Shown: positions 4,378-58,850 of the stretch, piece by piece
Position numbering within the stretch: position 1 is the stretch's first letter
Layout: the number at the start of each line of letters is the position of its first letter
From: Candidatus Omnitrophota bacterium
Lineage (GTDB): Bacteria; Omnitrophota; Gorgyraeia; B26-G9
Direction: 5' to 3'
DNA length: 64,000 nt
NCBI GenBank assembly: GCA_018817585.1
Contig: JAHITE010000081.1
Span: forward strand, 4,549 to 68,548
Position numbers and translations under genes: made by a program
Notes under the pieces: model-generated
The model's database searches: none
What the model was told of the DNA's origin: nothing
Seen by the model: only the letters and a program-made list of their open reading frames with translations

Positions 4378-5305
4378 CAGAATTAGCTTGTGACACCAAA
4401 TAGAGTACTGCCATTCTCACCGCGATTCCATTAGTCACCTGCTCAAGAATCACGGAATAAGTCCCATCAGCAACATCCGGCATAATTTCAATCCCCCGAT
4501 TCATTGGGCCGGGATGCATTACCAATACATCTTTTTTCGCGTATTTTTCCAGCTTTTCCTTGCTCACTCCATACTGAATCGCGTATTCGCGCATTGAAGG
4601 AAACAATCCGGCTTTTTGGCGTTCTTTTTGAATCCGCAGGATATTAATCACATCCGCGCCTTTTAATGCTTTGGATAAATCCGTGGTAATATTTACTCCC
4701 ATTTTTTCAATTTCCCGCGGTAAAAGCGTTCTCGGCGCGCAAATCGTTACATTCGCTCCCAGCTTTTTCAATCCCCAGATATTGCTGCGGGCAACCCGTG
4801 AATGCGTTATATCACCGATAATCGATACATTCAAGCCTTTTATTTTACCTTTTTTTTCTTTAATCGTAAACATATCAAGCAATGCTTGCGTAGGATGTTC
4901 ATGACAGCCGTCTCCGGCATTGATAATCGACGGCCCCATGGATTCAGCCAATGTATGCATTACTCCGCTGGAAGAATGTCGGAGAATAATCGCGTCGACT
5001 TTCATCGCTTCAATGTTTTTAAAAGTATCTTTCAGGGTCTCGCCTTTTTGAATCGCGCTGGTTGATGTGGCAATACTCAAAGTATCCGCACTTAACCTTT
5101 TTGCTGCCAGTTCAAAACTTGTTCTCGTCCTAGTTGACGGTTCAAAGAAGAATAGTACAATTGTCTTGCCGCGCAAAGTCGGTACTTTTTTAACTGAGCG
5201 GGTGGAAACTTCTTTAAACGATCCAGCTGTTTGCAGAATCAACTCAATTTCCTGCGCGGACAATTCCTCAAGTCCCAAAAGATCTTTTCTTGTCCATTCA
5301 TTCAT
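4361..5305 (-). CDS. pyrB: Aspartate carbamoyltransferase catalytic subunit
   Basis: STRTRTSFE carbamoyl-phosphate-binding motif; HPTQAL; 314 aa. Confidence 0.9.
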
Positions 5306-11419: not shown

Positions 11420-11558
11420 TTTTCAATATTTTAGATTAATGTTCAAGATTATAATTACCAATATGATATATGTTTACAATTCTAACACAATCTTTTTGAT
11501 TACACAAACTGGTTTATTTGACTTTATTGATTAGTTATGCTAAAGTACGATTACAAAA

Positions 11559-12974
11559 ATGAATATCGCGCTAATCCGTCCCCCAAAAATTACCGGAGCA
11601 TTTGAAAAAATCCTGATTCAGGAACCGATAAATCTTGTTTATTTAGCTGCTTTTTTAAATGCCAACGGATTTAATACTGTGATTTGGGATTTTGAAGTTG
11701 AGCAATTTTCCCAGCAAATTATAGCGCGAAGAATTGCTGACAATAATATTTCAATTGCCGGCATTACTTCCATGACTCCAACAATCAATAACGCGCATAA
11801 TATCGCTAATTTAATTAAACTCATAAATCCCGCGATTGTAACTATTGCCGGCGGAGCACATGTTTCCGCAATCCCCGAGCAGAGTTTAAACGAATTTCCG
11901 GGATTTGATTATCTGGTTTTGCGCGAAGGTGAAATCGCTTTGCTCAAACTCTGCCAAAGCATCAGAGATAAAAAGTCAGCTGATAAAATCAGCGGCCTGG
12001 CTTTTTTAAAGAACAAACAAGCGGTGATAAATCATCCAGCGGAAGAAATTGAGGATTTAGACAGCCTGCCCTTTCCAGACCGGAAGCTTTTAAACCGCGA
12101 TTTATACAAAAACATGTACGCCGCCGGAATTAACATCAGCAATAAACGCGCGACTGTTGTCTTTACTTCCCGCGGCTGTTCTCAAGACTGCACATTCTGT
12201 GCTGTTAAAAAAACCAGCGGCCCTAAAGTCAGATTCCGCAGCGCGGAAAATGTTATTGCTGAATTAAAGCAATGCAAAGACATGGGCTATAATCATATTA
12301 CTTTTGAAGATACCAATTTAACCTTAAATCAGCAAAGATTTATTCAAATCTGCAATGGCTTAAAAATATTGGGATTGACTTGGGATTGTCAGACAAAAGT
12401 CAACATGGTCAACAAACAGCTAATATCTCTGATGAAAGACTGCGGCTGTTTAAAAATTGCTTACGGTGTTGAATCCGGCAGTCCTAAGATCTTAAAACTG
12501 ATGAAGAAAAACATTACGCTTGAGCAGATAAAACAAGCATTTGAACTTACGCATCAAGCCGGAATTGTTACCTGTGCTTTCTTTATCTTAGGTTCGCATC
12601 CTGAAGAAACAGCCCAAGACATTAAACTGACTGAGCAAATAATAAAAAAAATCAAACCTGATGTATTTCAGCTAGGAATTATCTGTCCCTACCCCGGCAC
12701 AGAAATTTATGATATTATGCAGGAATACGGTTTAATCAAAGACATTGACTGGAATAAATTTAATTTCATGCATTCTGTTCCGCCCTGGGGCACAAAACAT
12801 TTAACAGCCCAACAATTAGTCAAATTTCAAAAACAAATCTATACCCGTTATTTATTCAGCTGGCATTTTATCGGTTTTTTCTGCAGAAAGATGCTCAATC
12901 CCAAACAACTGCCGCAACTATGCAAGCTCTCATTTTACATGCTAAAGTATTTGCTTTTTGAGAAAAGGAATTAA
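11559..12974 (+). CDS. B12-binding-domain radical SAM protein (class B rSAM)
   Basis: TSRGCSQDCTFCAV motif. Divergently transcribed from 9878-11419. Upstream -35 TTGACT, 17-nt spacer, -10 TAAAGT. 471 aa. Confidence 0.8.
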   Translation: MNIALIRPPKITGAFEKILIQEPINLVYLAAFLNANGFNTVIWDFEVEQFSQQIIARRIADNNISIAGITSMTPTINNAHNIANLIKLINPAIVTIAGGAHVSAIPEQSLNEFPGFDYLVLREGEIALLKLCQSIRDKKSADKISGLAFLKNKQAVINHPAEEIEDLDSLPFPDRKLLNRDLYKNMYAAGINISNKRATVVFTSRGCSQDCTFCAVKKTSGPKVRFRSAENVIAELKQCKDMGYNHITFEDTNLTLNQQRFIQICNGLKILGLTWDCQTKVNMVNKQLISLMKDCGCLKIAYGVESGSPKILKLMKKNITLEQIKQAFELTHQAGIVTCAFFILGSHPEETAQDIKLTEQIIKKIKPDVFQLGIICPYPGTEIYDIMQEYGLIKDIDWNKFNFMHSVPPWGTKHLTAQQLVKFQKQIYTRYLFSWHFIGFFCRKMLNPKQLPQLCKLSFYMLKYLLFEKRN

Positions 12975-16072: not shown

Positions 16073-17509
16073 TTACTTAGACTCCTTTAAGATTTTAGAC
16101 ACTTTCAGGCTATTAGCCCCTTTTATTACTGAATACCCCATTTTACAAATTGCTTTTATCTTTTCAAGACTATTTAATTTCTTAATCTGCTGCCAAATAT
16201 ACTTGGGCCGCAAATAAAACTTTTTCAAGGCATAATCACGCAGCTGCCAGATTTCTTGTCTGCTCAAGATTTGATTATCAATAACCGGATACATTGTCCG
16301 GTCAAAGTTTTTAATACTAGAGATTAAAGGATCCATTGCTTCTAATTGTTTACGCAATAGCGATCCATAATCCGGAACATACACTGAAAATGCCGCATAA
16401 TCACAATTAAGCTCACAGGCAAAATTAATACTCTTTTTAATGCTTTGGGCATCTTCACCAGGCAAACCAATAATAAAGAAACCAATTGTTTCCAGTGCCA
16501 ACTGTTTACAAATCAAAAAACAGCGCCTAACCTGCTGATTACTGATCGGTTTAGCCATTTTTTTCAGCAATTGCTCATTCTGGGTCTCAATTCCAAACTG
16601 AATTGTATGCGCTCCGGCTTTTTTCATTAAGATTGCCGTATCAATATCAAAACAATCTACTCGGGTCAAGCAATCCCAGCTCAGGCGAAGATCAGCATCA
16701 AGCATTGCCTGACAAAGCTTTCGCGCGTGCTCTTGATCAGCAGTAAAGGTGAAATCCGGAAAATGCACCTCAGATATACCCAAAGCTTTGATTGCTTTTA
16801 GCTCAAGAATAATATTATCAATATTTCTTAATTTAAAGCCAATCGAACCGCTGGAACAATAAGTACAACCATATTTACAGCCATAAGAAATCAAACAACA
16901 GGTAAAAGGCCTTTTTCTGGCTTGCGGCAGATAATATTTATCCAACGCGAAAAGTTCATGTCTGGGTACAGGATAAGAAAAACCAGTGTTTAGTTCAAGA
17001 ACATCGCATTGCTCAATAATCTGCTTATTTGCTTTAGCGCAAAGACCTTGATACGGCCCTGGCTTTTCCCGTAAATAATCAACAATCCCGAATTTTATAT
17101 AATCAATAATTACAGCATCAATAAAATCATGCTGTTTTAGATATTTTTTCGAATTATCCCGAGTAAAACCGGCATTTATAACAATAATTGTTTTACTCCG
17201 CGCTTTGATTGCTTTAAACAGCGCGAAATCCTCATCCATGCTCGCGCTGGAACTAAGGCTGATCAAAGCATAATAAGAACTGCTGATGATTTTTTCAATT
17301 AGTGTTTTTTCATCTACGGCCTCAGCAATAGCATCACATACCTCAAGCTCAAAATGCTCAGATAAAATACCACTTAAAACCAGTAAATCCACAGCCGGCC
17401 AATAATAATCCGCTTTTGTTGCCGAGCTGCAATACTGATCCCGAAGAAATTTTCGGCTGCCTGGAGGATTTAACAGCAATATTTTTTTCATTTTGGCATA
17501 GTATAGCAT
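16073..17509 (-). CDS. B12-binding-domain radical SAM protein (class B rSAM)
   Basis: ISYGCKYGCTYCSS CxxxCxxC motif; N-terminal B12-binding-like region; 478 aa. First gene of the minus-strand sub-operon, ending 2 bp before the FAD oxidoreductase. Confidence 0.75.
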   Translation of the reverse strand: MLYYAKMKKILLLNPPGSRKFLRDQYCSSATKADYYWPAVDLLVLSGILSEHFELEVCDAIAEAVDEKTLIEKIISSSYYALISLSSSASMDEDFALFKAIKARSKTIIVINAGFTRDNSKKYLKQHDFIDAVIIDYIKFGIVDYLREKPGPYQGLCAKANKQIIEQCDVLELNTGFSYPVPRHELFALDKYYLPQARKRPFTCCLISYGCKYGCTYCSSGSIGFKLRNIDNIILELKAIKALGISEVHFPDFTFTADQEHARKLCQAMLDADLRLSWDCLTRVDCFDIDTAILMKKAGAHTIQFGIETQNEQLLKKMAKPISNQQVRRCFLICKQLALETIGFFIIGLPGEDAQSIKKSINFACELNCDYAAFSVYVPDYGSLLRKQLEAMDPLISSIKNFDRTMYPVIDNQILSRQEIWQLRDYALKKFYLRPKYIWQQIKKLNSLEKIKAICKMGYSVIKGANSLKVSKILKESK

Positions 17510-31793: not shown

Positions 31794-32300
31794 TTATAAT
31801 TTTTGATAATTATAGATTTTAATTCTGCCGGTCGCATTGACAATTGTTAAAGTATAATACTTGCCCTGCGAATTTTTTAAAAAAATGCTGGCATTGTCTT
31901 CGGCACTACCGGTTATATTAAAAATTTCAGCAGGCCGGCTGATCAGAACATGTGAATCAACCGGCAAAGTAGTGCTTTCAATTATTACTCCGGACGCGGT
32001 TTTCATTGAAGTAGTAATTAATTGCCTGGTTAATTGATCTGGTTTGGCAAAAATAAAATACTCAGAATTAGCTGGATCAAAAGCAACTCCATGCTCAATC
32101 TGATGAGTGATCGCCAAACTGCGAGCCTGATTAAGCGCGGCCATAATATTATTTGCTGAGATTTTTAGAGCAGCACCGGCTTTATAATTAAAAAAATACA
32201 CCGTGGTAAGCCCCATGAGCATTGTGATAATGCCTAAGACAACCATCATTTCTATCAAACTAACTGCTTTAATTTTTTTCATAATTAATAAGTATAACAC
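31794..32300 (-). CDS. Prepilin-type N-terminal cleavage/methylation domain protein (type IV pilin / pseudopilin)
   Basis: MKKIKAVSLIEMMVVLGIITMLMGL, with Glu at +5 after the predicted cleavage site. The start is ambiguous (GTG at 32300 or ATG at 32282). Confidence 0.75.
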   Translation of the reverse strand: MLYLLIMKKIKAVSLIEMMVVLGIITMLMGLTTVYFFNYKAGAALKISANNIMAALNQARSLAITHQIEHGVAFDPANSEYFIFAKPDQLTRQLITTSMKTASGVIIESTTLPVDSHVLISRPAEIFNITGSAEDNASIFLKNSQGKYYTLTIVNATGRIKIYNYQKL

Positions 32301-32337
32301 AAAATTTATTCAGATAACAAGGGATAAGAGTATAAAT

Positions 32338-32376
32338 GTGGGGTTAGTGGGGTTAGTGGGGTTAGTGGGGTTAGTG
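32338..32376. repeat. 9-bp tandem repeat (GGGTTAGTG, equivalent to GGGGTTAGT) in 4.3 copies, immediately upstream of the pilin gene promoter.
   Basis: gtg(gggttagtg)x4 read directly from the sequence. A TATACT -10-like hexamer follows on the minus strand. Confidence 0.9.
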
Positions 32377-32399
32377 CGTTGTCGCGTTAACTCGATAAC

Positions 32400-32850
32400 T
32401 CATAGAGAAATAAAAAAAGCCGGTAAGGGTAAACTTACTTTCGGCAACCCAGCCGCCATTGCGCTTTCCACCCTCGACAGTTTTCATTGTATTACTTTTC
32501 CTCCACTTGGGTCATGAAGGCTGGTATAAATAACTGTCGTAAGAATAGACACTTTAGGCCTGTAGCATTGCCTCGAATACAGAGCAAAAACTCAAAACTC
32601 TGCTTTCGAGGGCACTGTTCTGAGTAAATCAAAACAAGTGCCGCCCTCGCTTTTCAGCTCCCGATTGCATCATCCAAAAATGACACAATCCCAATAAATA
32701 GCCATAAATCCCTAGCTCTGGGCTAAGCGATCAATCAAAAACAATGAATTGACCAGCAAAGTGGGATCTCAATCACAGCATATCAAATCAATGAACTTGA
32801 GAGAGTTTGCCCTTATCGACTCTAATATAGATTGTACCATACAAATTGAA
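32400..32850 (-). ncRNA. Candidate structured non-coding RNA (~450 nt) of unknown class.
   Basis: A 600-bp gap with no ORF of 60 aa or more and GC clearly above the flanks. Extended -10 promoter TGcTATAAT on the minus strand (~32858-32866). Intrinsic terminator hairpin plus T7 on the minus strand (~32405-32435). Multiple long GC stems, e.g. cgagggcggcac...gtgccctcg and cctcgaa...ttcgagg. Confidence 0.45.
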
Positions 32851-32901
32851 TTATAGCAACTCTTTATAAAAGTATTTTTTATCAATAAAAAAATTTATTG
32901 C

Positions 32902-33270
32902 TTAATAACTGTATTCATCTTCAAACACAACCTTAAAATCAAAAATATTTTTAAAATCTTCAATATTATCATCTTCAGTTTTACCTAAAACACCAGCATC
33001 AACCATATTAAATACAATATTGCCAAAGTCCTCAGTAACTTTAACCCCCCAATGCTCAAGCACTGTTCTGGCCATTCTGCCGTATTCACACAAAGCATAG
33101 TCCCTAATACCTTCAGACAGCTCCTTACCGCTAACATGGCCTTTGCGTTTTAAACGCTGCATTGTAAAATTCAAGGCGCCTAGAATAAATGGATAAGCAT
33201 CCAGCTTATATCTTTTATCATGCTCGCAAATTACTGTCAAAACACTTATCATATCTTCTTTTGATTCCAT
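32902..33270 (-). CDS. Hypothetical protein (122 aa, acidic C-terminus)
   Basis: ORF with typical codon usage; no motif recognised. Confidence 0.4.
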   Translation of the reverse strand: MESKEDMISVLTVICEHDKRYKLDAYPFILGALNFTMQRLKRKGHVSGKELSEGIRDYALCEYGRMARTVLEHWGVKVTEDFGNIVFNMVDAGVLGKTEDDNIEDFKNIFDFKVVFEDEYSY

Positions 33271-33301
33271 TTTGCTATTACCTACCTCTAATTTTATTAT
33301 T

Positions 33302-34054
33302 TTAAAATTTAAATTTTCTCAAAGCTTCTATTGCCGAATACGCGGTTAAATCAAACTGTAAAGGAGTTATGGAAACAAAATTATCTTCAATCGCCCGAAT
33401 ATCAGTATCATCGGTTTTTTTAATCCATTGAGCTTTTCCCGTCAACCAATAATATATCCGGCCTCGAGGATCAAGTCTTTTTACAAATTCTTCTTTGTAC
33501 AAGGATTTACCTTGGCGAGTAATCTTAACTCCTTTAATTTTACTTTTTGCCGCGCTGGGGATATTCACATTAAGTAATACTCCGTCCTCAATGCCTTTTT
33601 TCTCAAATTTTTTAGCCAGAGTGCCGGCAAAATCAGCGGCAAAAGAAAAATCATGTTTCTCATATGTTGCTAAAGAAATCGCGATTGAAGGAATGCCAAG
33701 AATAGTTCCCTCGGTTGCCGCGGAAACAGTTCCTGAATACATAATATCTGAACCTAAATTAGGCCCGTGATTTATTCCGGAAATAATCATATGCGGCTTT
33801 TGCTTTAAAACACAGCGCACCGCAATCTTTACACAATCCGCGGGTGTGCCATTAACCGCATAGCCAAAGAATTTCTTATTTTTAATTATTTCCTTTATCC
33901 GCAAAGGCTTGCTCAGGGTTATGGCATGACCAATCGCGCTCTGTTCTGCTTCCGGGGCGCATACAGTTACATCATATTTTTTACTCAAACTCAGATAAAG
34001 CGCGTACAATCCATCTGAATTTATTCCATCATCATTGGTCAATAGTATCCGCAT
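33302..34054 (-). CDS. surE: 5'/3'-nucleotidase SurE
   Basis: MRILLTNDDGINSDGL N-terminal metal-binding motif; 250 aa. Confidence 0.9.
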   Translation of the reverse strand: MRILLTNDDGINSDGLYALYLSLSKKYDVTVCAPEAEQSAIGHAITLSKPLRIKEIIKNKKFFGYAVNGTPADCVKIAVRCVLKQKPHMIISGINHGPNLGSDIMYSGTVSAATEGTILGIPSIAISLATYEKHDFSFAADFAGTLAKKFEKKGIEDGVLLNVNIPSAAKSKIKGVKITRQGKSLYKEEFVKRLDPRGRIYYWLTGKAQWIKKTDDTDIRAIEDNFVSITPLQFDLTAYSAIEALRKFKF

Positions 34055-34134
34055 CCCGCAAACTCCCTGATTTAAATCTTTAATTAAACAGCTTTTGATA
34101 ATCCGCGAAAATTAATTTTAGAAAATAATAATCC

Positions 34135-35160
34135 TTATAAAGAAAATCTACCGAATATCAGCGATTTGCAATTCGAACAATGCCCATTTTTAAGGTTTAA
34201 TTCAACTTCATCATATTCTTTTCTTTTAATTATAATTTTTTTGCATTTCTGGCAATATGTATTTGCCGATAAATGCCCCGGGATATTGCCAATATACACA
34301 TAATTCAGCCCTTCTTTCATCGCCAGCAGCCGAGACTTTTCCAATAAACCCACAGGAGTAGGCACAACATCCTTAAATTCGCCATATGGAAAGAATCTGG
34401 TTAAGTGTAAAGGTGTGTCTTTGCCCAGTTCGGCAAACATCCAGGAAGCAATTTCTTTTATTTCCTTTTCACTGGAATTATATCCGGGAATAATATTAGT
34501 CACAACCTCAACATGCATCGCGTGCTTGCGTTTCGCGTCACTGGCATTACTGAATATAGTATTAATATCCGTTACAGCGGCAATCCGGGTATAACTCTCC
34601 ATAAAAGAGCCTTTAACATCAATACAAAGCCCGTCTGTATATTCCGCGATTGCATCAAAAGCTTTAGAGCCCAGATAACCATTAGTCACTAAACATGTAG
34701 ACAATCCCTCGGATTTCGCTAATTTAAATACATCCAAAACAAATTCAAGCCACATAGTTGGCTCATTATGGGAAAAGGCAATGCCTTTACAGCCGTTTCG
34801 CAATGCTTTTTTAACAACTATTTCCGGACTTAAATCATGGATTTTATTCACAACTTCTTTTACATCACAATGCGATAATCCCCATGACTGGCAGCCATGA
34901 CATTGAAAGTTGCAGCCCAAACCGCCCAACGAAAGCCATAAGCTGCCGGGAAAAAAATTATACATATGCTTTGTTTCTATCGGAGAAATACTGGATAAAG
35001 CAACTTTACCGTATGTAACAGTAATCAGCTGTCCATCTTGATTGTAACGCGTCTGACACCATCCCCACTGACCTTTATCAATAATACATTTACGCATACA
35101 TAAAAAACAGCGTACCGAGTCTTTCATATACGGTTCCCAAAATAAAGCATTTTTCAGCAT
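34135..35160 (-). CDS. AmmeMemoRadiSam-system-type radical SAM enzyme (AmrS-like; PFL-activase-related)
   Basis: N-terminal Cys cluster CFLCMRKC...WGWC. Radical SAM motif GCNFQCHGCQSW. SPIETKHMYNFFPG matches the family hallmark. 341 aa. Confidence 0.7.
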   Translation of the reverse strand: MLKNALFWEPYMKDSVRCFLCMRKCIIDKGQWGWCQTRYNQDGQLITVTYGKVALSSISPIETKHMYNFFPGSLWLSLGGLGCNFQCHGCQSWGLSHCDVKEVVNKIHDLSPEIVVKKALRNGCKGIAFSHNEPTMWLEFVLDVFKLAKSEGLSTCLVTNGYLGSKAFDAIAEYTDGLCIDVKGSFMESYTRIAAVTDINTIFSNASDAKRKHAMHVEVVTNIIPGYNSSEKEIKEIASWMFAELGKDTPLHLTRFFPYGEFKDVVPTPVGLLEKSRLLAMKEGLNYVYIGNIPGHLSANTYCQKCKKIIIKRKEYDEVELNLKNGHCSNCKSLIFGRFSL

Positions 35161-35164
35161 ATAA

Positions 35165-36895
35165 TTATTTCCTTCCCTGCAAATTAAACATTTGCTTAAT
35201 TTCTTCTACGGTAGTAGCATCTTTGGCTGCCTTATCAATGCGGATAAAACCTACTGTACGCGGGAAGCGCAAAGCATAACCAGTATCATCCTTACTATCT
35301 TTACCGCATGTATGCACCGGACTTTGAGTGATTTCATCAGCCTGGACTTCCACTACATAGAGCGGATCAACCCACACATCAGGCACAATTAAGGACTCAA
35401 CATTTTTCGGCATAAAATTTATTTTGATTTTATCAAGAGTTTCCTTAAACCGGACTAATTCATCGTCACTTAATCCAGTACCTATTTTAGCAATTGTTTT
35501 AAACCTGCCTACCGTTGGATCATAAACAGCAGCTAATAGGGATCCAATGCCAAATGCCGCTCTCAATCCTTTGCCAAAAAAATAGCCGATAATAACACAA
35601 TCAATCGTATCATTTAAATTGTCGGAATACGACTGTTTTAATTTTATCCAATTAAAATTTCTTCCTCCGGCCTTATATTCACCATCCAGGCGTTTGGCAA
35701 CAATGCCTTCCCGGCCCTGGGCAATAGCATCTTCAAATATTTCAGTTAAACGCTGGGCTGTTTTTACTTCTTCAACCGGAGATAATTCCAAAACCTTGCC
35801 TTTTTTGATCAACTCTGACATAATCTGCCGTCTTTGACTAAAAGCATACTGAGTTAAATCTTTATCCGCGTACAAAAGATCAAACACAAAAATCTTCAAA
35901 GGAAATTTTTCCCGAATGGATTCAATGCCATGCTTGCGCTTTCGCTGTACAGTTGTCTGAAAAGGCAAACACTGTCCGGTAGCTGGATCATAAGCCAAAG
36001 CTTCACCCTCGAAAATCACATTGCTTTCTTTTATCTGATCAAGAGTCCCCTGAATAATCTCCGGAAACATATGAGTTGTATTTTCCAGATTACGCGAAAA
36101 AATCTGAACTTTGTTGCCCATTTTATGCACTTGACAGCGGAACCCGTCATATTTTTCTTCCACAGCGCAAGTTCCGATTTTTTCAATAATCTCTTCTGGT
36201 CCGGATAATCGCGCTGCCAAGGCAACCCGAATCGGACAGCCGACCATTACTTTAAAATCAATAATACTGCTAATCCCCTTGGTAAATAATATTTTCGCCA
36301 CCAAGCCAAGATCAGAACAAAGATTATAAGCCCGCTCCAAATCCGGGCGTAAAAGTTTATCCTGATTATAGGCAAGGGAAAGACTGTCTAAAACAGTAGG
36401 ATCACCTACCCCCAATCTCAGCTTGCCTAAAATTATCCGAATAATATATTTTGCCTCAAGCGGACTGGCATTTTTTAATAAATCAGCAAGAAATTCGATT
36501 TTACGAGCCACTGATCCATCACCGGAAAACTCAGCGAGTTTTTCTAAATTCGCGTAAACCTGACTAATACTTAAAACTTCTAAATGATCTAAACAAACCT
36601 TTTCCGCGACTAATCCATAATCCCCAAGCTGATGAACCATTGCTTCAATATCATTTGATATCCCGCCGGTTGCCTGAACAATAGCGCGATGAATAAGTTT
36701 TTCACTGATTCCAAACTCAATATTGCGAAATGAAGGCAACAGCTGCCCCTGCGTAAGATAGATAATTTCATCTATTTTTTCTTTTTCTACTGGATCAAGA
36801 TTAGTAAAAAGCTCAGCTAAAATATCAGTCATCTCCAGCCGTTTAGCGGTATTTTCCAGCTTTTGAAAATAAGCAGCCAGTTGTTTAAATTTCAT
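35165..36895 (-). CDS. lig: ATP-dependent DNA ligase (LigI/archaeal-type, three-domain)
   Basis: Adenylation motif I EEKYDGFR (KxDG); OB domain; N-terminal DNA-binding domain; 576 aa. Confidence 0.85.
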   Translation of the reverse strand: MKFKQLAAYFQKLENTAKRLEMTDILAELFTNLDPVEKEKIDEIIYLTQGQLLPSFRNIEFGISEKLIHRAIVQATGGISNDIEAMVHQLGDYGLVAEKVCLDHLEVLSISQVYANLEKLAEFSGDGSVARKIEFLADLLKNASPLEAKYIIRIILGKLRLGVGDPTVLDSLSLAYNQDKLLRPDLERAYNLCSDLGLVAKILFTKGISSIIDFKVMVGCPIRVALAARLSGPEEIIEKIGTCAVEEKYDGFRCQVHKMGNKVQIFSRNLENTTHMFPEIIQGTLDQIKESNVIFEGEALAYDPATGQCLPFQTTVQRKRKHGIESIREKFPLKIFVFDLLYADKDLTQYAFSQRRQIMSELIKKGKVLELSPVEEVKTAQRLTEIFEDAIAQGREGIVAKRLDGEYKAGGRNFNWIKLKQSYSDNLNDTIDCVIIGYFFGKGLRAAFGIGSLLAAVYDPTVGRFKTIAKIGTGLSDDELVRFKETLDKIKINFMPKNVESLIVPDVWVDPLYVVEVQADEITQSPVHTCGKDSKDDTGYALRFPRTVGFIRIDKAAKDATTVEEIKQMFNLQGRK

Positions 36896-36898
36896 AAA

Positions 36899-37351
36899 TC
36901 ACTCGTATCCTTGTTTCCTAATCAGCTGCAGCGCTTTTTCCACAACCCCGCGCTCAGACTCAAAACTCAGTTTTTCTAAAGCTTTATCTATTGGCAGCCA
37001 TTCTACAGCATCAACTTCTCGATCATATTCCCGCGAAACCGTAGCCAGTTTTTTCATTAAAAAAAAGCGTACTGTTTTATCAAGCTCTAATTGGCGTTTT
37101 GGGTCAGTGTATTTATAATAAATGTCTTTAATATGTTCAATTATTATCGCTTTTACCCCTGTCTCTTCCGCTACTTCCCGGATTGCTGCCTGCTCAGAAG
37201 TTTCCCCGGATTCAAGCTTTCCCTTGGGCAAACACCACTCTGTCGCGTTTTTCCGGCTATATATTACAATCATCGGCAGCTGCTTGATAAAATTAAATAC
37301 AACCGCGCCGGCGGAAATTTCCTGTTTAGTTTTATACATAAACACACTCAT
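36899..37351 (-). CDS. NUDIX hydrolase
   Basis: Nudix box GKLESGETSEQAAIREVAEETGV; 150 aa. Confidence 0.85.
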   Translation of the reverse strand: MSVFMYKTKQEISAGAVVFNFIKQLPMIVIYSRKNATEWCLPKGKLESGETSEQAAIREVAEETGVKAIIIEHIKDIYYKYTDPKRQLELDKTVRFFLMKKLATVSREYDREVDAVEWLPIDKALEKLSFESERGVVEKALQLIRKQGYE

Positions 37352-37353
37352 TA

Positions 37354-38286
37354 TTATTCTTCAGGCAAAACCACTTGATTTTTTTCCTGAGATAAATATT
37401 GCTCTAAGGCCTGTTTCCAAAGACAAAGCTTTTTACCTGTAATTTTCTCAAACCGGCTTTTATCCATCACGGAAAACTTCGGTCTTTTCGCGGCACGCGC
37501 TATATAATCAGAATCAACCGGCTCAAGCTTTGCCTTTATTCCGGTTAATTCCAGGATTGCCTGCGCGAATTCAAACCAGCTGCATTGTCCGGAATTACTC
37601 ACATGGTAAATCCCATAGCTAGATTGCTCTGATTCAGATTGAAAAACCGATTTAGTCAGCCAAAACAAAGCTTGGGCTAAACTCAAGGTATATGTAGGCG
37701 ATCCGATTTGATCATTTACAACTTTAAGATCTCCATCAGCTCGCGCCTTATTAACAATTGCTTTAACAAAATTTTTCCCCTTAGTTCCAAACAGCCAGCT
37801 GGTTCTTACAATAATATACTCCGTCAAGCAAGCAGCAACGCGCTGTTCTGCTGCTAATTTGGAACATCCATAATAATTAAGCGGATAGGGTTTATCGGTT
37901 TCAATATAAGCAGTTTTTTTATTTCCATCAAACACATAATCAGTACTGATAAAAATCAGTTTCGCGTTATACTGCTGACATAAAAAAGCAATGTTCTCTG
38001 TTCCCAGAACATTCACTGCTTTTGCCTGTTCCTGCTCTGACTCAGCGAGATCAACATTAGTAAAAGCCGCGCCATGAATTACCATCCACGGTTTTATCTG
38101 TAAAAATAAAGCCTCCAGATCTTTTCGCTGAGTTATATCAGCTAAAAAAACTCTCGGTTTATCAGTGTCCGGATTTATATCAATACCGTAGACTTCATAA
38201 TCAGAATCAAATACTTGGCTTAAGTCCTGGCCAAGCATGCCCTGAATCCCTGTAATTAAGATCTTTTTTTTAATTTTTCCCATCAT
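37354..38286 (-). CDS. rmlD: dTDP-4-dehydrorhamnose reductase
   Basis: N-terminal KILITGIQGMLGQDL Rossmann motif; RmlD-like length and pattern; 310 aa. Confidence 0.7.
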   Translation of the reverse strand: MMGKIKKKILITGIQGMLGQDLSQVFDSDYEVYGIDINPDTDKPRVFLADITQRKDLEALFLQIKPWMVIHGAAFTNVDLAESEQEQAKAVNVLGTENIAFLCQQYNAKLIFISTDYVFDGNKKTAYIETDKPYPLNYYGCSKLAAEQRVAACLTEYIIVRTSWLFGTKGKNFVKAIVNKARADGDLKVVNDQIGSPTYTLSLAQALFWLTKSVFQSESEQSSYGIYHVSNSGQCSWFEFAQAILELTGIKAKLEPVDSDYIARAAKRPKFSVMDKSRFEKITGKKLCLWKQALEQYLSQEKNQVVLPEE

Positions 38287-38445
38287 TTTGAATTATTTTT
38301 CATACCATTCTAAAACCTGATCAAAATCAAATACAGGTTTAAATCCTAATTTTTTGAATATCCAAACTATATTTTCGGTCATGCCCTAATCTGTCGGGAA
38401 CATAAACATACCTTTAACTTAGATTTCAAGAGGACATAGACCCAA

Positions 38446-38474
38446 ATTTTAGCACAGAAAGCACTGAGTGTCAA
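38446..38474 (-). promoter_or_regulatory. Sigma70-type promoter for rmlD (-35 TTGACA, 17-nt spacer, -10 TAAAAT on the minus strand).
   Basis: Read directly: forward tgtcaa at 38469-38474 and atttta at 38446-38451. Confidence 0.55.
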
Positions 38475-38510
38475 ATAATCATCTCTGCGGAAAAAATGAA
38501 TTTTTCGCCA

Positions 38511-38547
38511 AATTTTCCCGCTTTTCCCGCTTTTCCCGCTTTTCCCC
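38511..38547. repeat. 9-bp tandem repeat CTTTTCCCG (3 perfect and 2 imperfect copies) abutting the -35 of the plus-strand promoter.
   Basis: aattttcccg-cttttcccg-cttttcccg-cttttcccc, then TTGCTA (-35), 17 nt, TATACT (-10) at 38548-38576. Confidence 0.9.
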
Positions 38548-38642
38548 TTGCTAATCCGCAGATTTTCAAGTATACTATGCCTTTGTTTAATAAATATTTA
38601 ATTATCCAGCTATTATTATTTGATTTATAAAAATAGAGTATT

Positions 38643-41363
38643 ATGAAAAATCAATTATGGCAATTTACAAATCGTAACGGAGATTTTACTTTTCCGGATG
38701 CGCATAAGATCAGCCGCCTATACTTCCCGCTGGCTAATGAAGCGGAATTTATGTCTTCAATCACTCCTCTGCTGAGAGGCGATATTAAAATCGGGCAAAA
38801 CAACTTTTTAATGCAGCCGATCACCAGCGAGGATCTGAGCAGCTCTTTTTCCGGAAGAAATTTCTGGGTTTATCTTAATCCCCATACTTACTGGTCAATA
38901 AGCGGCGCCCCTTACTCCTGTAGTCCTGAAGAAAGCGTAAATTTAAAAGCCGGGATTCTCTGGCATGGAATAAAACGTTCGAATGAAAAGATCGGGCTCA
39001 GCGCTGAAGTAACTAATTTTATTCCCGCAAAAGGTGAGCATGTAGAATTAATGACCATAAAAATCACTAATATTTCGGCGCGGGCAATTACTTTTACTCC
39101 GACAAGCGCGATTCCGATATTCGGCCGTTCTGCTGACAATTTACGCGATCACCGGCATGTTACCAGTTTGCTGCACCGCACCGCTTTGACCAAAAACGGA
39201 ATTATCATTAAGCCGGAAATGTCTTTTGATGAACGCGGACATGAAATAAATTATTTTTCCTATTTTGTTATTGGCTGCGATGAAAACAGTAATTTACCTG
39301 TGGGGCAATTCCCGTCTATTGAATCTTTTATTGGTGAAGGCGGCAATCTAATCGCTCCCAGAGCAATCATGGAAAACCTAACTCCGTTTAAAAAAATCGA
39401 AAACCGTCATCATGGAAAAGAATCAATCGGAGCTTTACGCTTTCAAACTAAAACCTTGATTCCTGATGAATCAATTACGTATATTCTTATGCTCGGAATC
39501 GCCCAGAATAAAAATGAGTTCAATAAGATATTTAAACGCTTTAACGGAAAAGAAAAAGTTAAAAACGCTTTAACGGAAAATATAGATTATTGGAAAAAAA
39601 GGATTGACGCGATTAGTTTTTGCACTGGAGAAATCACTAATGATAATTGGCTGCGCTGGGTCACCCTGCAGCCTATTTTAAGAAAGATCTTCGGCTGTTC
39701 ATTTTTGCCTGATTTTGATTATGGCCGCGGCGGAAAAGGCTGGCGGGATTTATGGCAGGACTGCTTAACCCTTATTCTCGCCCATCCGCAGCAGACCCGG
39801 GATATTCTGGCAGCAAACTTTTCAGGCATTAGGATTGATGGAACCAATGCCACGATCATTACCAAAAAGCTAGGTGTATTTATATCAGACCGCAATAAGA
39901 TCAGCCGAGTATGGATGGATCATGGTGTTTGGCCTTTATTTACTTTAGAGTTATATATTCACCAAACCGGTGATTTTGATATACTGTTTGAACATTGCTC
40001 TTATTTTTATGATTCTCAGCTTTCCCGGGCTAAGGACATTGATTTAAACTGGAATCCGAAACTTAAACACAGCAAACAACTGCATACCAAAGACGGACAT
40101 GTTTATAGCGGCACTATTCTTGAACATACTTTAGTCCAGCATTTGGTGCAATTTTTTAATGTAGGCAAACACAATAATATCCGATTAGAAGACGCTGATT
40201 GGAATGACGGTTTGGACATGGCTAGTGAAAAAGGTGAAAGCGTTGCCTTTACCTGTTTTTATGCTCGAAATATCTATGAGATTTCCATGCTTTTGATTGA
40301 ACTGAAAAAAAAGAGAAAAAAGAAAAACATCGTGATTTCCAAAGAGCTGTATCTCCTGCTGGATACTTTGCATAAGAATCCTGTGAATTACAATAGCGTT
40401 GAGAAAAAAACCGCTTTATTACATCAATATTTCAAGGCAGTTAAATACCGGGTCTCCGGGAAAAAAGTTTCAGTTAAAATTGATGATCTTATTTCCGACT
40501 TATCACAAAAATGGCAATGGTTATTTGCCCATGTCCGCAAAAAAGAATGGATTAACATCAACAACCAAATCGGCTTTTTTAATGGATATTACAATAATAA
40601 GAGCAAACGGGTCGAAGGCAAAATAAACGGTCAAATGCGCATGACTCTCACCGGACAGGTATTCCCAATTATGAGCGGCGCGGCTTCAAAAAAACAAATA
40701 AAACATATTTATTCCGCGGCCAACAAATACCTTAAAGATAAAAAACTAAATGCTTTTCGCCTGAACACAAACTTTAAGAACCCGCAGTTTGATTTAGGAC
40801 GCGCTTTTGCTTTTTCCTATGGGGATAAGGAAAATGGGGCGATATTCAGCCATATGTGCGTTATGTTTGCTTATGCGCTTTATCAACGCAACTTTGTAAA
40901 AGAAGGTTATACTGTTTTAAACAGTTTATTCGAGCTAGCGACTAACACCAATGTCAGCAAAATTTATCCTTGTCTGCCGGAATATTTTAATCTTGAAGGA
41001 AAAGGTCTTTACTCTTATTTAACTGGATCAGCCAGCTGGTATATTTTAACCATGCTCACTGAAGTTTTTGGAATTAAAGGACATTTTGGGGATCTGGTAA
41101 TTGAACCAAAGCTTACCCGCGAACAATTCAGCAATACTGATACAGTATCTACTTCCTGCTATTTTGCCGATAGACGGATAAGCATTATTATTCAAAACCC
41201 CACTAAATTAGAATACGCTGATTACAAAATAATCAGTTTAAAGATAAAACCAACGCAGGTTGATTATAAAAAAGTTTCTGCGAATAAAATAAAAATTCTT
41301 CGCAAGAATATTACTGAATTCCCCAAGAATACGCATATTACCATTGAAGTACTCCTGGGATAA
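38643..41363 (+). CDS. Large (alpha/alpha)6 six-hairpin glycoside hydrolase/phosphorylase-like protein (GH94-like?)
   Basis: 906 aa. The motif EDADWNDGLDM resembles the catalytic-acid region of GH94-type phosphorylases. Family assignment is tentative. Confidence 0.4.
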   Translation: MKNQLWQFTNRNGDFTFPDAHKISRLYFPLANEAEFMSSITPLLRGDIKIGQNNFLMQPITSEDLSSSFSGRNFWVYLNPHTYWSISGAPYSCSPEESVNLKAGILWHGIKRSNEKIGLSAEVTNFIPAKGEHVELMTIKITNISARAITFTPTSAIPIFGRSADNLRDHRHVTSLLHRTALTKNGIIIKPEMSFDERGHEINYFSYFVIGCDENSNLPVGQFPSIESFIGEGGNLIAPRAIMENLTPFKKIENRHHGKESIGALRFQTKTLIPDESITYILMLGIAQNKNEFNKIFKRFNGKEKVKNALTENIDYWKKRIDAISFCTGEITNDNWLRWVTLQPILRKIFGCSFLPDFDYGRGGKGWRDLWQDCLTLILAHPQQTRDILAANFSGIRIDGTNATIITKKLGVFISDRNKISRVWMDHGVWPLFTLELYIHQTGDFDILFEHCSYFYDSQLSRAKDIDLNWNPKLKHSKQLHTKDGHVYSGTILEHTLVQHLVQFFNVGKHNNIRLEDADWNDGLDMASEKGESVAFTCFYARNIYEISMLLIELKKKRKKKNIVISKELYLLLDTLHKNPVNYNSVEKKTALLHQYFKAVKYRVSGKKVSVKIDDLISDLSQKWQWLFAHVRKKEWININNQIGFFNGYYNNKSKRVEGKINGQMRMTLTGQVFPIMSGAASKKQIKHIYSAANKYLKDKKLNAFRLNTNFKNPQFDLGRAFAFSYGDKENGAIFSHMCVMFAYALYQRNFVKEGYTVLNSLFELATNTNVSKIYPCLPEYFNLEGKGLYSYLTGSASWYILTMLTEVFGIKGHFGDLVIEPKLTREQFSNTDTVSTSCYFADRRISIIIQNPTKLEYADYKIISLKIKPTQVDYKKVSANKIKILRKNITEFPKNTHITIEVLLG

Positions 41364-42830: not shown

Positions 42831-44792
42831 GTGATTATGATATACGACGCGTTTCAAAAACGAGCAATTAATAGTACTGACAGCGGCAATTCAGTAATTG
42901 TCTGTGCCCCAACAGGCGCGGGAAAAACAGCTATTGCCGAATATGTTATTGAAAAATGCATAGCTGAAAACAAGGGGATTGTTTATACTGCTCCGATCAA
43001 AGCACTCTCCAATCAGAAATTTCGCGATTTTTCCCGAAAATACGGTAATCATATTGGAATACTCACTGGTGATGTCAGCTTAAACGCTAATGCCCCGATA
43101 TTGATCATGACTACTGAGATCTTCCGCAATACCTTACTGGAAGACCCCTTGCGCTTAAAAAACATATCCTGGGTTATTTTTGATGAAATCCATTATCTTG
43201 ACGATCCGGAACGAGGCACGGTTTGGGAAGAATCAATTATTTTTTGTCCGGAACACATAAAAATCCTAGCCTTGAGCGCAACGATTCCCAATGCGATCCA
43301 ATTATCTTCCTGGATTAGAAATATCCATAAACATCCGGTTGAAACCATTATCGAAAAAAAACGGCCAGTTCCCTTGCATCATTGTTTTCAGGCGCATAAC
43401 CGGGTTCTTGATAATTTTGAACAGCTTAAAAAAAATATTTACGAACAGGTAAAAAGAACTCATCCCCGTTCCAAAAAACACCATTCTTTTCAAAATTTTC
43501 GCCATGAAGAAAAAACTGCTTCGGCAAATAAGATATCCTCGCTTCTTCATCATTTACAGGAAAATGACAAGATGCCGGCAATCTACTTTGCTTTTAGCCG
43601 CAAACGCTGCGAAAAACTGGCTTTTGAAAGCAGAAATTTTAATTTTCTTGAAGATCAGGAACAAGCGGAATTAAAAGATATATTTGCTAATTTACTTAAA
43701 AAATACGGGTTAACGCAGGAGCCATCGGCAATTAGAATGCGCGGTTTAATTGAAAACGGAGTTGCTTATCATCATGCCGGATTATTGCCAAGTTTAAAAG
43801 AAGTTGTTGAACAATTATTTACCAGCCGGCTGATTAAACTTATCTTCACTACCGAGACTTTTGCTTTGGGAATTAACATGCCGGCAAGAACAGTAATTTT
43901 TGATGAACTCCGCAAGTTTTACGGTCAGTTCTTCGCTAATCTGCGTACCCGGGATTATTATCAAATGGCTGGCCGTGCCGGACGCCGCGGCATTGACACT
44001 GAAGGTTTTGTATACTCAAGGATAAATCCTCTGCGCATTGAACTAGACCAAATAAATAAAATGATCTTTGCTCAGCCGGAACCAGTACTCAGTCAATTCA
44101 ATTTATCTTATGCCAGTTTACTGCATCTTTATGGAACGTGGCAGGACCGCTTATATGAGGTCTATCCGCAAACTCTGCATTTTTATCAAGCGAATAAGCG
44201 CTCGCGGAAAAAAGCTTTGGAAATTTTACATACAAAGATAAGACTGCTTAAAGAAATGGACTATATCCGGGATCACAAGCTGACTGATAAAGGAAAGTTC
44301 GCCTCTTCTATTTATGGATATGAACTGCTTTTAACTGAGCTTTTCTTTTGCAGGGTGCTGGAAGAGTTGTCGAGCATTGATCTTAATATTGTGCTTACAT
44401 CTTTAGTTTTTGAACCAAGAAAAAATCAATTAAACATTAAACTCCCTCACCAGATTATTAAAATTAATAAAAAATTATCTCCGGTTGTTGAAGATATTTT
44501 AAAAATTGAAAAAAAACACAAGATCCGGCCGCTGACTAAAAAACCGTTCTTTAATCTTTCGGAAGCAGTAGAAAAATGGTCAACTAATGAATCGCTGGCT
44601 GTAATCACCGACGGAACGAATGCTGATCCCGGTGAAATAGTCAGATATTTTAGAATGGTAATCCAAATCCTCCGCCAATTGCGCGCTATCCCCTTTATCA
44701 GCAGTAATTTTAAGCAGAATATTTCCCGATCATTAGAAATGATCAATCGGGATGAAGTTGATGCTGAAAAACAATTAAGAGAAGGCCTCTAG
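42831..44792 (+). CDS. Superfamily-2 DEAD/DEAH-box helicase (DEIH, Ski2/HelY-like)
   Basis: Walker A APTGAGKT; DEIH box; SAT; helicase motif VI QMAGRAGRRG; 653 aa. Confidence 0.8.
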   Translation: MIMIYDAFQKRAINSTDSGNSVIVCAPTGAGKTAIAEYVIEKCIAENKGIVYTAPIKALSNQKFRDFSRKYGNHIGILTGDVSLNANAPILIMTTEIFRNTLLEDPLRLKNISWVIFDEIHYLDDPERGTVWEESIIFCPEHIKILALSATIPNAIQLSSWIRNIHKHPVETIIEKKRPVPLHHCFQAHNRVLDNFEQLKKNIYEQVKRTHPRSKKHHSFQNFRHEEKTASANKISSLLHHLQENDKMPAIYFAFSRKRCEKLAFESRNFNFLEDQEQAELKDIFANLLKKYGLTQEPSAIRMRGLIENGVAYHHAGLLPSLKEVVEQLFTSRLIKLIFTTETFALGINMPARTVIFDELRKFYGQFFANLRTRDYYQMAGRAGRRGIDTEGFVYSRINPLRIELDQINKMIFAQPEPVLSQFNLSYASLLHLYGTWQDRLYEVYPQTLHFYQANKRSRKKALEILHTKIRLLKEMDYIRDHKLTDKGKFASSIYGYELLLTELFFCRVLEELSSIDLNIVLTSLVFEPRKNQLNIKLPHQIIKINKKLSPVVEDILKIEKKHKIRPLTKKPFFNLSEAVEKWSTNESLAVITDGTNADPGEIVRYFRMVIQILRQLRAIPFISSNFKQNISRSLEMINRDEVDAEKQLREGL

Positions 44793-57333: not shown

Positions 57334-58850
57334 TCATAAAAAAACTATATCTTCAATACCTAATTGTTCATCAGTAAATATAGATATTTTTACCCATAAT
57401 TTCTTTTCCAGATTAATTATCGCCAGTCTATCCTCATTTAAAAACCTTAATGCTATTTTGGGATTAACTTTAACTTCAATATAGCGTTTTTTATGGGCTA
57501 TAAGATGATTTTTAATTTGCCTTATTACTTTAATCGCAACAGATTGCGTTGATTTTATCCGGCCAGTGCCTTCGCATACAGCACATTTTTGAAAAATCAC
57601 ACTTTCAATATTTTTCCGAATTCTTTGTCTGGCAATCTGAACTAAACCCAAAGGAGAAAACGGGTAAATTGTTGAACGGGCCTTATCTTTTTCCAAAGCT
57701 TTTGTCAAAACCTGCAATATTTTTTCTGGTGTGAATTTTTTTGCATATCAATAAAGTCAATAACAATAATCCCGGCTAAATCCTTGAGCATGGCCTGCCG
57801 GGCAATTTCCTTAGCAGCCTCCAAATTAGTTAAAAATGCTGTTTCTTCCAGCCGGCCCCGATTAACAAAACTACCGCTATTAACATCAATTGAGACTAAT
57901 GCTTCAGTGCGTTCAATAACAATATATCCGCCTTTTTTTAAAGAAATCTTCTGGTCATAAATCTGATCAATCTGACGCTCAACATCAAATTTTTCAAACA
58001 AATGCATTTTATCTTTGTGTAAGATTATCCGATTACGTAATTGCGGAGCTAAAGCTTTGATAAAACTCATTACCCGTTTATAATCATCTTTAGTATCAAT
58101 AATCAGACTTTTCGCGTCTTCGCTGAAAATGTCGCGGGCAATTCTTAAAACAATATCATATTCTTCATGAATCAAAGCCGGAGCTTTGCTTTTATTTGAT
58201 TTACTTTGAATCGTTTGCCACAACCTTAGTAAATATTTTAATTCCCGCTTAAATTCATTTTTCCCCATACCCACGGCCTGGGTGCGCACTATACAACCCA
58301 TTTCTTTGGGTAATCCAATATCCTTTAACAGCTGCTTCAGCCTGGCTCGTTCTTTTTCATTGGTGACTTTTTTAGAAATACCAATATTCTGGCTATAAGG
58401 CATAAGCACGAGAAATCTTCCCGGCAGGCTGATATGACTGGTTAATCTGCAGCCCTTAGTACCAAAGGGTTCTTTGACCACCTGAACTAATACTTCTTGT
58501 CCCTTGGTTAATAAATTTTCAATTCTTACTCTTTCTTCGCTTACCTTTGGCTCTGGCGCTGTAACTGGTTCAACAACACCGTCTTCAATCTCAAGCGCGT
58601 ATTCATCCGGCCTAAGCGTTTCCGGCAGTAATTCCTGCACATATAAAAAGCCGTTTTTCGCCAACCCAATATCTACAAAGGCAGCTTCCATGCCCTTAAC
58701 TATTTGCGCGACCTTACCTTTATAAATATTTCCGGCTAAATGCTGAATAGCCGTTCTTTCAAGAAAAAATTCTTCCAACTTATTTTCTTCTAGAATAGCA
58801 ACCCGCTTTTCCTGTTCATCTACACTAATTAAAATCTCTTTACTTTCCAT
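57334..58850 (-). pseudogene. rng: Ribonuclease G/E family (rng/cafA) split into two ORFs by a -1 frameshift in a T6 homopolymer (57720-57725). Either a sequencing artefact or an authentic frameshift.
   Basis: The upstream ORF carries the S1 domain and the catalytic domain up to VIDFIDMQKNSHQKK. The downstream ORF continues ...LTKALEKDKARSTIYPFSPLGLVQIARQR...CAVCEGTG. Inserting one A restores a single ~505-aa RNase G. Confidence 0.7.

Follow-up and report, generated by a model that had tools for sequence, protein, structure and literature searches.

A radical SAM gene of the AmmeMemoRadiSam type directly follows an archaeal-type ATP-dependent DNA ligase gene in a conserved Omnitrophota gene cluster

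Conservation of AMMECR1 and Memo extends from archaea to humans, and the two have been linked to human disease; in the AmmeMemoRadiSam system their counterparts AmrA (TIGR04335) and AmrB (TIGR04336) are grouped with a radical S-adenosylmethionine (SAM) enzyme, AmrS (TIGR04337). To our knowledge, no reaction has been established for AMMECR1, Memo and their radical SAM partner in any of the three domains of life, and our literature searches on AmmeMemoRadiSam and on AMMECR1 together with radical SAM returned no functional study. Among bacterial ATP-dependent DNA ligases, those of the Lig B class share with archaeal replicative ligases a three-domain architecture of DNA-binding, nucleotidyltransferase and OB-fold domains (DB-NT-OB), were probably acquired horizontally from archaea and are encoded in clusters with an Lhr helicase, an MPE phosphoesterase and an Apollo-like exonuclease; bacterial ATP-dependent ligases are said always to accompany the NAD-dependent ligase LigA (PMC7470946). 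Here we describe a locus at which these two systems meet. In a 64,000-nucleotide (nt) stretch of a Candidatus Omnitrophota bacterium (contig JAHITE010000081.1; hereafter the window), an amrS gene encoding 341 amino acids (34135-35160, minus strand) lies directly downstream of a gene for a 576-amino-acid ATP-dependent DNA ligase (35165-36895, minus strand), an arrangement of which we found no description in the literature searched.

An alignment of AmrS proteins of the Omnitrophota clade was used to scan species-representative genomes, and the genes around each of the 44 loci obtained were annotated with reference proteins. In all 16 Omnitrophota species-representative genomes the ligase gene is followed directly by amrS, whereas no ligase is found near AmrS at any of the 28 loci from other phyla, which encode proteins of 39-47% identity and come from Aminicenantes, Nitrospirota, Dehalococcoidia, Spirochaetota and others. 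Every context look-up for an AmrS homolog of 61-89% identity placed the ligase immediately upstream, and the pair also occurs on further contigs of metagenome-assembled genomes (MAGs) and metagenomes, a metagenome scan adding one locus from a close relative (L009). An earlier note on this DNA had proposed that the neighbourhood of radical SAM enzyme and ligase is not accidental, and the recurrence of the pair near repair genes in 16 of 16 representatives bears this out. The junction itself is tight: in the window (35158-35179, minus strand) a Shine-Dalgarno-like GGGAAGGA lies within the last ligase codons, after which come the TAA stop, a 4-nt spacer and the ATG of AmrS. This Shine-Dalgarno-like sequence (GGGAAGGA/GGGAGGA) is conserved inside the 3' end of the ligase gene, and the distance from ligase stop to AmrS start ranges from -8 to +4 nt across the loci of the main Omnitrophota clade and the divergent locus L050, the exception being a second divergent locus, L062, with a gap of 135 nt. 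A position fixed directly after the ligase, with stop and start codons that overlap or nearly do so, suggests that the two proteins would be made from one transcript in coupled amounts. What is new here is a phylum-specific ligase-AmrS operon with putative translational coupling, along with a hint, described below, that LigA has been replaced.

The pair is also retained where its surroundings are not. In three loci of order B26-G9 (L012, L013 and L027), genes for RecA, an HtrA-type protease and RecX lie downstream and the Nudix hydrolase gene found upstream of the ligase in the window is gone, yet ligase and AmrS remain together. They likewise persist in the deep branches represented by L050 and L062, where identity falls to 41% for AmrS and 59% for the ligase. 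At L050 the order is ribonucleotide reductase (208-1965), flavin reductase, DUF523, a PolX-type polymerase with pol beta and PHP domains (3284-5146), an unknown protein, a CxxCxxCC protein, deacetylase, Nudix, ligase and AmrS, followed by a thioredoxin-like protein, an HhH-GPD glycosylase, SurE and a Minf_1886-family protein; at L062 it is ligase C-terminus, AmrS, thioredoxin-like protein, HhH-GPD, a small protein and SurE. The gene after AmrS in both L050 and L062 is of the thioredoxin/AhpC type. A neighbour-joining tree places L050 as sister to the main Omnitrophota clade, which fits a single ancient origin of the linkage. Homology searches, for which the best 120 matches were listed, added one more deep lineage (L062) when the divergent L050 AmrS was the query, and included no AmrS from LigA-bearing Omnitrophota among the matches listed. 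We also looked at orthologous ligases outside the phylum: at 55-56% identity (Nitrospirota, Thermoflexus and another lineage), none of three has an adjacent AmrS gene and their neighbours are unrelated. As orthologous ligases and AmrS proteins of other phyla are unpaired and the pair is present in deep branches, the coupling appears to be real, old and confined to Omnitrophota. Synteny of the region as a whole was considered and rejected as a full explanation of the adjacency, since the pair survives replacement of its flanks at L012/L013/L027, L050 and L062.

The radical SAM protein is a recognizable AmrS. It scores 264 bits against TIGR04337 (cutoff 220; E = 1.7e-78; model positions 3-334 of 349), a modest value beside the 305-326 bits of Segatella and Trichlorobacter AmrS, and it has the 11 family-wide invariant cysteines (C18/21/25/35, C83/87/90 and C303/306/328/331), the motifs of which are unchanged in 16 of 16 Omnitrophota sequences, 29 of 29 sequences from other phyla and Trichlorobacter AmrS. 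The motifs that the earlier note had listed, namely SPIETKHMYNFFPG, CNFQCHGC (Cys83/87/90) and an N-terminal cysteine cluster (C18/C21/C25/C35), are all present, and its identification of AmrS, a LigI-type ligase, a Nudix protein and SurE agrees with the Pfam and NCBIfam profile scores. A further cysteine, Cys179, occurs in 16 of 16 Omnitrophota AmrS proteins and is replaced by asparagine or arginine in the 31 others; it is one of 17 Omnitrophota-specific positions, with C98 and C156 listed beside it. Both AmrS and the ligase are 100% identical to NCBI entries of Candidatus Omnitrophica, annotated as 'AmmeMemoRadiSam system radical SAM enzyme' and 'ATP-dependent DNA ligase', and all components of the cluster belong to known, already annotated families.

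No AmrS-family structure was found among the solved structures searched. An AlphaFold2 model of AmrS (predicted local distance difference test score 95.9) has as its top solved match the pyruvate formate-lyase (PFL)-activating enzyme 3CB8, with a template modelling score of 0.78 on the target. Both in structure and in sequence, the AmrS core is matched best by the PFL-activating enzyme (3CB8/3C8F), and the two have in common the CX3CX2C site for the SAM cluster. However, identity is 17-18%, AmrS falls far below the family cutoffs of glycyl-radical activases (63 bits against 232 for TIGR02493 and 49 against 174 for TIGR02494) and, unlike the PFL-activating enzyme, it carries a Cys4 element at either end, a module of about 60 residues at the N terminus and a ribbon of about 40 residues at the C terminus. 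The window has no gene for a glycyl-radical enzyme. Judging by the model, the resemblance is one of fold only. AmrS would thus consist of a PFL-activating-enzyme-like core flanked by two Cys4 metal-binding modules, with a [4Fe-4S] cluster predicted on C83/C87/C90, where SAM would be cleaved reductively to a 5'-deoxyadenosyl radical that abstracts a hydrogen from the substrate. Kinship with spore photoproduct lyase or another nucleic-acid-modifying radical SAM family was also considered and set aside, no such family being found above noise in the profile scan.

Whether this AmrS is an orphan, as the earlier note had it, depends on its usual partners. Their absence from the window was confirmed: no open reading frame (ORF) of at least 110 amino acids matches PF01871 (AMMECR1) or PF01875 (Memo), and six-frame tblastn and phmmer searches of the 64 kb with a Segatella Memo-AMMECR1 fusion, as well as a search for the RGC[IV]G motif, found nothing. 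The same holds for the wider sample, in which AMMECR1 or Memo lies within about 10 kb of AmrS at none of 45 loci (17 from Omnitrophota and 28 from other phyla), so that amrS unlinked from amrA and amrB is the norm in these 45 loci. Adjacency of amrA or amrB to amrS, a frequent though not an obligatory trait of the system, is illustrated by a control locus on a Segatella hominis plasmid: there an amrB-amrA fusion gene directly adjoins amrS, whereas in our case neither partner is found within 64 kb. For evidence from whole genomes we turned to the per-genome KEGG orthology (KO) lists in the Source Data of Seymour et al. 2023 (PMC10066038). Genome 58 of that study is MAG DG02-5-26 (order B26-G9, Tibet hot spring, 93.9% complete, 0.9% contamination), the same MAG as our locus L029 (JAMWCB01, isolate DG02_5.bins.26.Tibet), which carries Nudix, ligase, AmrS, SurE and Minf_1886-family genes. 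We take K09141 to be the AMMECR1/COG2078 group. It is named only 'uncharacterized protein' in the one paper found. The list for genome 58 contains a single K04069 (the PflA-type KO assigned to AmrS), K06990 (MEMO1 family) and K09141, along with mutT, mutY, nth, surE and polX (PMC10066038). Because a MAG with the same cluster lists both partner KOs elsewhere and has the ligase-linked AmrS as its sole AmrS, the orphan label is unsupported; the window AmrS, like other members of the system, passes TIGR04337 and is probably not an orphan.

As a separate observation on AmrS contexts, the nearest homologs outside Omnitrophota often lie in a cassette of three radical SAM genes (L007, L036, L037, L039, L041-L045 and L049; Aminicenantes, 'Eubacteriales' and WOR-1), in which the gene directly upstream of AmrS encodes a radical SAM protein of 250-300 amino acids in 9-10 loci, and the one directly downstream an AmrS-like paralog of 345-370 amino acids in 5. 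A DUF2784 membrane protein is often encoded near this cassette, AMMECR1 and Memo never.

The ligase is a complete enzyme by its motifs, with K248 in KYDGFR (motif I) and VIFEGE, EGIVAK, WIKLK and RFPR (motifs III-VI) all intact. PF04675, PF01068 and PF04679 (DNA_ligase_A_N, _M and _C) together give the DB-NT-OB architecture, TIGR00574 scores 447 bits, and the protein matches archaeal ligase structures over its full length, the best solved relative being Sulfolobus ligase 2HIV at 451 bits. The matches listed include homologs from Nitrospirota, Thermoflexus and Dictyoglomaceae that are 52-56% identical. On this sequence evidence we assign it to the bacterial Lig B class, of archaeal or Lig1 type. 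It has the DB-NT-OB domains of that class (PMC7470946), but its neighbours here are Nudix, AmrS, glycosylase and SurE genes rather than those described for Lig B; genes for Lhr, MPE and an Apollo-like exonuclease are absent from the window ORFs, and TIGR04120, the 'cisplatin damage response' ligase model, scores 134 bits against a cutoff of 400. One orthologous ligase of 56% identity (L063, 8585-10143) lies near genes for a HIT-family hydrolase and a Clp1-type polynucleotide kinase, which is a different end-healing flavour of context without AmrS.

The second respect in which the locus departs from the described class concerns LigA. Lig B is said always to occur with LigA, whereas no LigA gene lies in the window and the relative with the same cluster has no K01972: the list for genome 58 includes K10747, runs from K01963 to K01989 without K01972 and has no K01971 (PMC10066038). 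Conversely, K01972 is listed for genomes 221 and 231, both of order 4484-171 and 93-95% complete, and genome 231 is without K10747 (PMC10066038), a comparison for K10747 that in this order covers genome 231 only. The two KOs thus look mutually exclusive, with K10747 alone in B26-G9 (one MAG) and K01972 in 4484-171, which is a hint of LigA replacement. Since this KO pattern is joined by a ligase that is present and syntenic in every member of the clade, the data suggest that the ATP-dependent enzyme has replaced LigA in this Omnitrophota branch and that it is probably a lineage-wide housekeeping gene. This undercuts the idea in the earlier note that the ligase belongs to a special module. A replacement of this kind has been reported previously only for high-light Prochlorococcus marinus, in which an ATP-dependent ligase stands in place of LigA (bioRxiv 10.1101/2020.05.11.089284). 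The likeness to B26-G9, suggested by one 94%-complete MAG, is that of an ATP-dependent ligase without LigA; the differences are that ligase lineage and phylum are other ones and that the evidence here is the KO table of three MAGs, not curated complete genomes. A 2026 preprint on complete Omnitrophota genomes mentions neither DNA ligase nor AMMECR1 in its text or supplement (bioRxiv 10.64898/2026.06.07.730766). A further comparison is with mycobacterial Lig C, an accessory-type ATP-dependent ligase in a PrimPolC base-excision-repair hub with glycosylases and end-processing enzymes (PMC7470946). The Omnitrophota ligase resembles it in lying near a MagIII-like glycosylase gene and, at L050, near PolX; however, Lig C is a minimal NT-OB enzyme with PrimPol, whereas the present ligase has three domains, no PrimPol accompanies it and a radical SAM enzyme takes the coupled position.

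Around the pair, the co-directional genes are closely packed. All window ORFs of at least 110 amino acids were scanned against Pfam, and family calls were made with NCBIfam models and their curated cutoffs; the ORFs lie where the earlier note had placed them, all on the minus strand. The run is headed by rmlD (37354-38286, minus strand), for dTDP-4-dehydrorhamnose reductase (TIGR01214, 289 bits against 224), and continues with the gene for a 150-amino-acid Nudix hydrolase (36899-37351, minus strand), the ligase gene, amrS, surE (5'/3'-nucleotidase; 33302-34054, minus strand; NF001492, 314.6 bits against 271; TIGR00087, 254.8 against 135.1) and, as its last member, a gene of the Minf_1886 family of conserved hypothetical proteins of the PVC group (32902-33270, minus strand; TIGR04138, 144.9 bits against 60), the successive gaps being 2, 3, 4, 80 and 31 nt. 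A candidate sigma-70-like promoter, TTGACA-17-TAAAAT with a TG extension (38446-38474, minus strand), lies upstream of rmlD; it matches the consensus at 11 of 12 positions and is the top site in 32300-38700, by consensus match only. Transcription of the operon likely starts there, and no convincing terminator was found inside it. The product of rmlD functions in cell-wall sugar synthesis, which is not DNA-related, and because rmlD sits within the same tight operon, packing alone is no sign of a shared pathway.

Neighbours of the pair are less constant than the pair itself. Among 15 informative species representatives, 12 have the Nudix gene before the ligase. Its product has a complete Nudix box (GX5EX7REX2EEXG, residues 44-65) and 73 bits against PF00293; it passes this Pfam domain model only and is under the cutoff of every NCBIfam equivalog. 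Its closest solved relatives are Aquifex Ap4A hydrolase 3I7U, Thermus Ndx1 and Chlamydia CT771, and by sequence it resembles Ap4A/ApnA (Ap4A/Ap6A) hydrolases and MutT1; we file it only as a Nudix hydrolase. Assignment as MutT (8-oxo-dGTP diphosphatase) was rejected because all scores are under their cutoffs (TIGR00586, 40.9 against 97.9; MutT1 NF052459, 69 against 475). On the other side, 13 of 14 informative representatives have surE downstream of AmrS, and a Minf_1886 gene follows surE in nearly all relatives. Eight representatives, about half of the relatives, have between AmrS and surE a gene for a MagIII-like HhH-GPD (3-methyladenine) glycosylase (for example L002, 9049-9699). In the window only 80 nt separate amrS from surE (34055-34134) and the glycosylase gene is not at this position, which indicates that it was lost here, in the sublineage of the window.

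We favour a reading in which the region would be a conserved Omnitrophota housekeeping operon, comprising rmlD, the Nudix gene, the Lig B-type ligase gene and amrS, then surE and the Minf_1886-family gene. The archaeal-type ligase would have been acquired by the lineage and, because LigA appears to be missing, would most likely serve as the general DNA ligase for replication and repair; AmrS would be an ordinary AmmeMemoRadiSam member, most likely working with AmrA and AmrB encoded elsewhere in the genome. We put at roughly 55% the probability that AmrS cooperates with AmrA and AmrB here as in other organisms and owes its position to lineage-specific co-expression with DNA-maintenance genes. 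Co-transcription, translational coupling, a replicative ligase and the action of AmrS with AmrA and AmrB are all elements that we infer. We do not read the cluster as a new self-contained DNA-end-processing module around an orphan enzyme: of the nucleotide or DNA-end processing module envisaged in the earlier note, the conserved neighbourhood stands, but AmrS is probably no orphan and the ligase is probably housekeeping. Several points count against the housekeeping operon and the conventional AmrS. LigA is absent from one 93.9%-complete MAG, which leaves a chance of about 6-7% that the gene was merely unassembled. The evidence for partners is the KO table of one relative, not of the window's own genome, and the equation of K09141 with AMMECR1 is a presumption, this KO being named only 'uncharacterized protein'. 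The 17 clade-specific AmrS residues, including the invariant Cys179, could mean a changed partner or substrate. Finally, the pair persists through three flank contexts, each with repair genes (a MagIII-like glycosylase and SurE; RecA and RecX; PolX and ribonucleotide reductase upstream), which exceeds simple hitchhiking and favours a functional tie.

Such a tie could take more than one form. AmrS may have a direct role in DNA metabolism: with or without AmrA and AmrB, it may act on DNA or nucleotides, for example by radical processing of a damaged base or strand end, with ligase, glycosylase, Nudix, SurE, PolX and RecA finishing the repair, and a nucleic-acid substrate would then apply to the whole AmmeMemoRadiSam system. 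We hold this alternative tentatively and think it rather unlikely. It would account for the coupled junction, for repair genes in all three of the alternative flanks and for the fact that ligase-AmrS is the most persistent adjacency of the region, kept when Nudix, glycosylase, SurE, rmlD and GH94 genes are lost or replaced. Spore photoproduct lyase is a precedent for DNA repair by a radical SAM enzyme, and Burroughs et al. 2019 reportedly proposed, in silico, nucleotide-base or isoprenoid modification for Memo-AMMECR1-radical SAM systems. Yet the linkage is limited to one phylum, with none of the other 28 AmrS loci and none of the three other ligase loci sharing it; should this be the only housekeeping ligase, the genes next to it would not have to be specific to repair, and rmlD shares the operon. 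Nor does AmrS resemble nucleic-acid radical SAM families above noise, its closest fold being that of a protein-directed activase. Genome 231, moreover, with LigA and no ATP-dependent ligase, still has K04069, K06990 and K09141 (AmrS, AmrB and AmrA; PMC10066038), which argues that the system is independent of this ligase.

The fold raises the alternative that AmrS is directed at a protein, the ligase itself or some other operon product, which it would modify or activate in the manner of glycyl-radical activases, with coupling matching the amounts of the two proteins. PFL-activating enzymes, its closest structural and sequence relatives, act on a protein loop, overlap of stop and start codons is typical of interacting pairs, and the Omnitrophota-specific changes of surface or active site, Cys179 among them, would suit such a role. 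The ligase, however, has all of its standard motifs and neither an odd insertion nor a motif of the glycyl-radical type, its orthologs elsewhere function without an adjacent AmrS, the spacing is equally tight between rmlD and Nudix and between Nudix and ligase, and no fusion or other supporting evidence was found; we judge this a long shot. Still further down is an anti-phage defence system or mobile island built on a viperin-like radical SAM enzyme, a Nudix protein and a ligase. Weak PADLOC matches point that way (33 bits for the radical SAM protein against prokaryotic viperin models and 43 bits for the Nudix protein against PDC-S07), but they span only the generic radical SAM core and the Nudix fold, and the viperin model NF038283 scores 31 bits against a curated cutoff of 180. 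GC content is flat over the region, the flanks are housekeeping genes in an order that is stable across the phylum, and no integrase, transposase or tRNA genes were found. With generic-core matches, a viperin score below cutoff and a stable housekeeping context, a defence system is effectively refuted and we give it next to no weight.

The phylum-wide, putatively coupled pairing of AmrS and ligase, repeatedly amid repair genes, offers a concrete and testable lead on the AmmeMemoRadiSam system, although one weaker than first thought because AmrS is probably not an orphan and the ligase looks like a housekeeping enzyme. Were the replacement true, Omnitrophota without LigA would be only the second reported exception to bacterial replication with an NAD-dependent ligase. 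The most far-reaching combination, in which an archaeal-type ligase replaced LigA in the whole branch, the sole AmrS has been coupled to that ligase since before the deepest sampled splits and the AMMECR1/Memo/AmrS system acts on DNA or the DNA-joining machinery, strikes us as doubtful.

Beyond the operon, the 600-nt gap downstream of the Minf_1886 gene (32301-32901) holds, at about 32405-32671 of the minus strand, a non-coding element that is structured and conserved. Its fold energy has a z score of -3.55, and its DNA retains about 72% identity in relatives that reach only 65-69% identity at the protein level. An alignment of 10 sequences has 95% of its cells paired, against 38-48% in slid controls, and shows 11 compensatory pairs, against none in 500 shuffles. 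The element ends in a terminator-like hairpin with a U-run, and a promoter-like site lies at 32859-32831. It matches no Rfam family, and Rfam and tRNA scans of the window as a whole likewise gave no matches. We regard it as a candidate new small RNA or leader. Between this element and a pilin-like gene (31794-32300), a perfect 9-nt tandem repeat, GTGGGGTTA, is present in 4.3 copies at 32338-32376.

Elsewhere in the window, RNase E/G is encoded by two overlapping ORFs on the minus strand (57334-57717 and 57705-58850), split into the catalytic part and, after it, the end of the catalytic domain with a thioredoxin-like domain; this may reflect a frameshift, a sequencing error or a truly split gene. 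Four radical SAM genes (8395-12974 and 16073-17509), three of them with B12-binding domains, cluster with genes for a GT2 glycosyltransferase, a polysaccharide deacetylase and an amine-oxidase-type flavoprotein. The plus strand at 42831-44792 encodes a protein unusual in bacteria, a Ski2/HelY-like DEAD-box helicase with a DSHCT domain, and a gene for formamidopyrimidine-DNA glycosylase (Fpg/MutM) lies on the minus strand at 421-1239, 33 kb from the ligase cluster.

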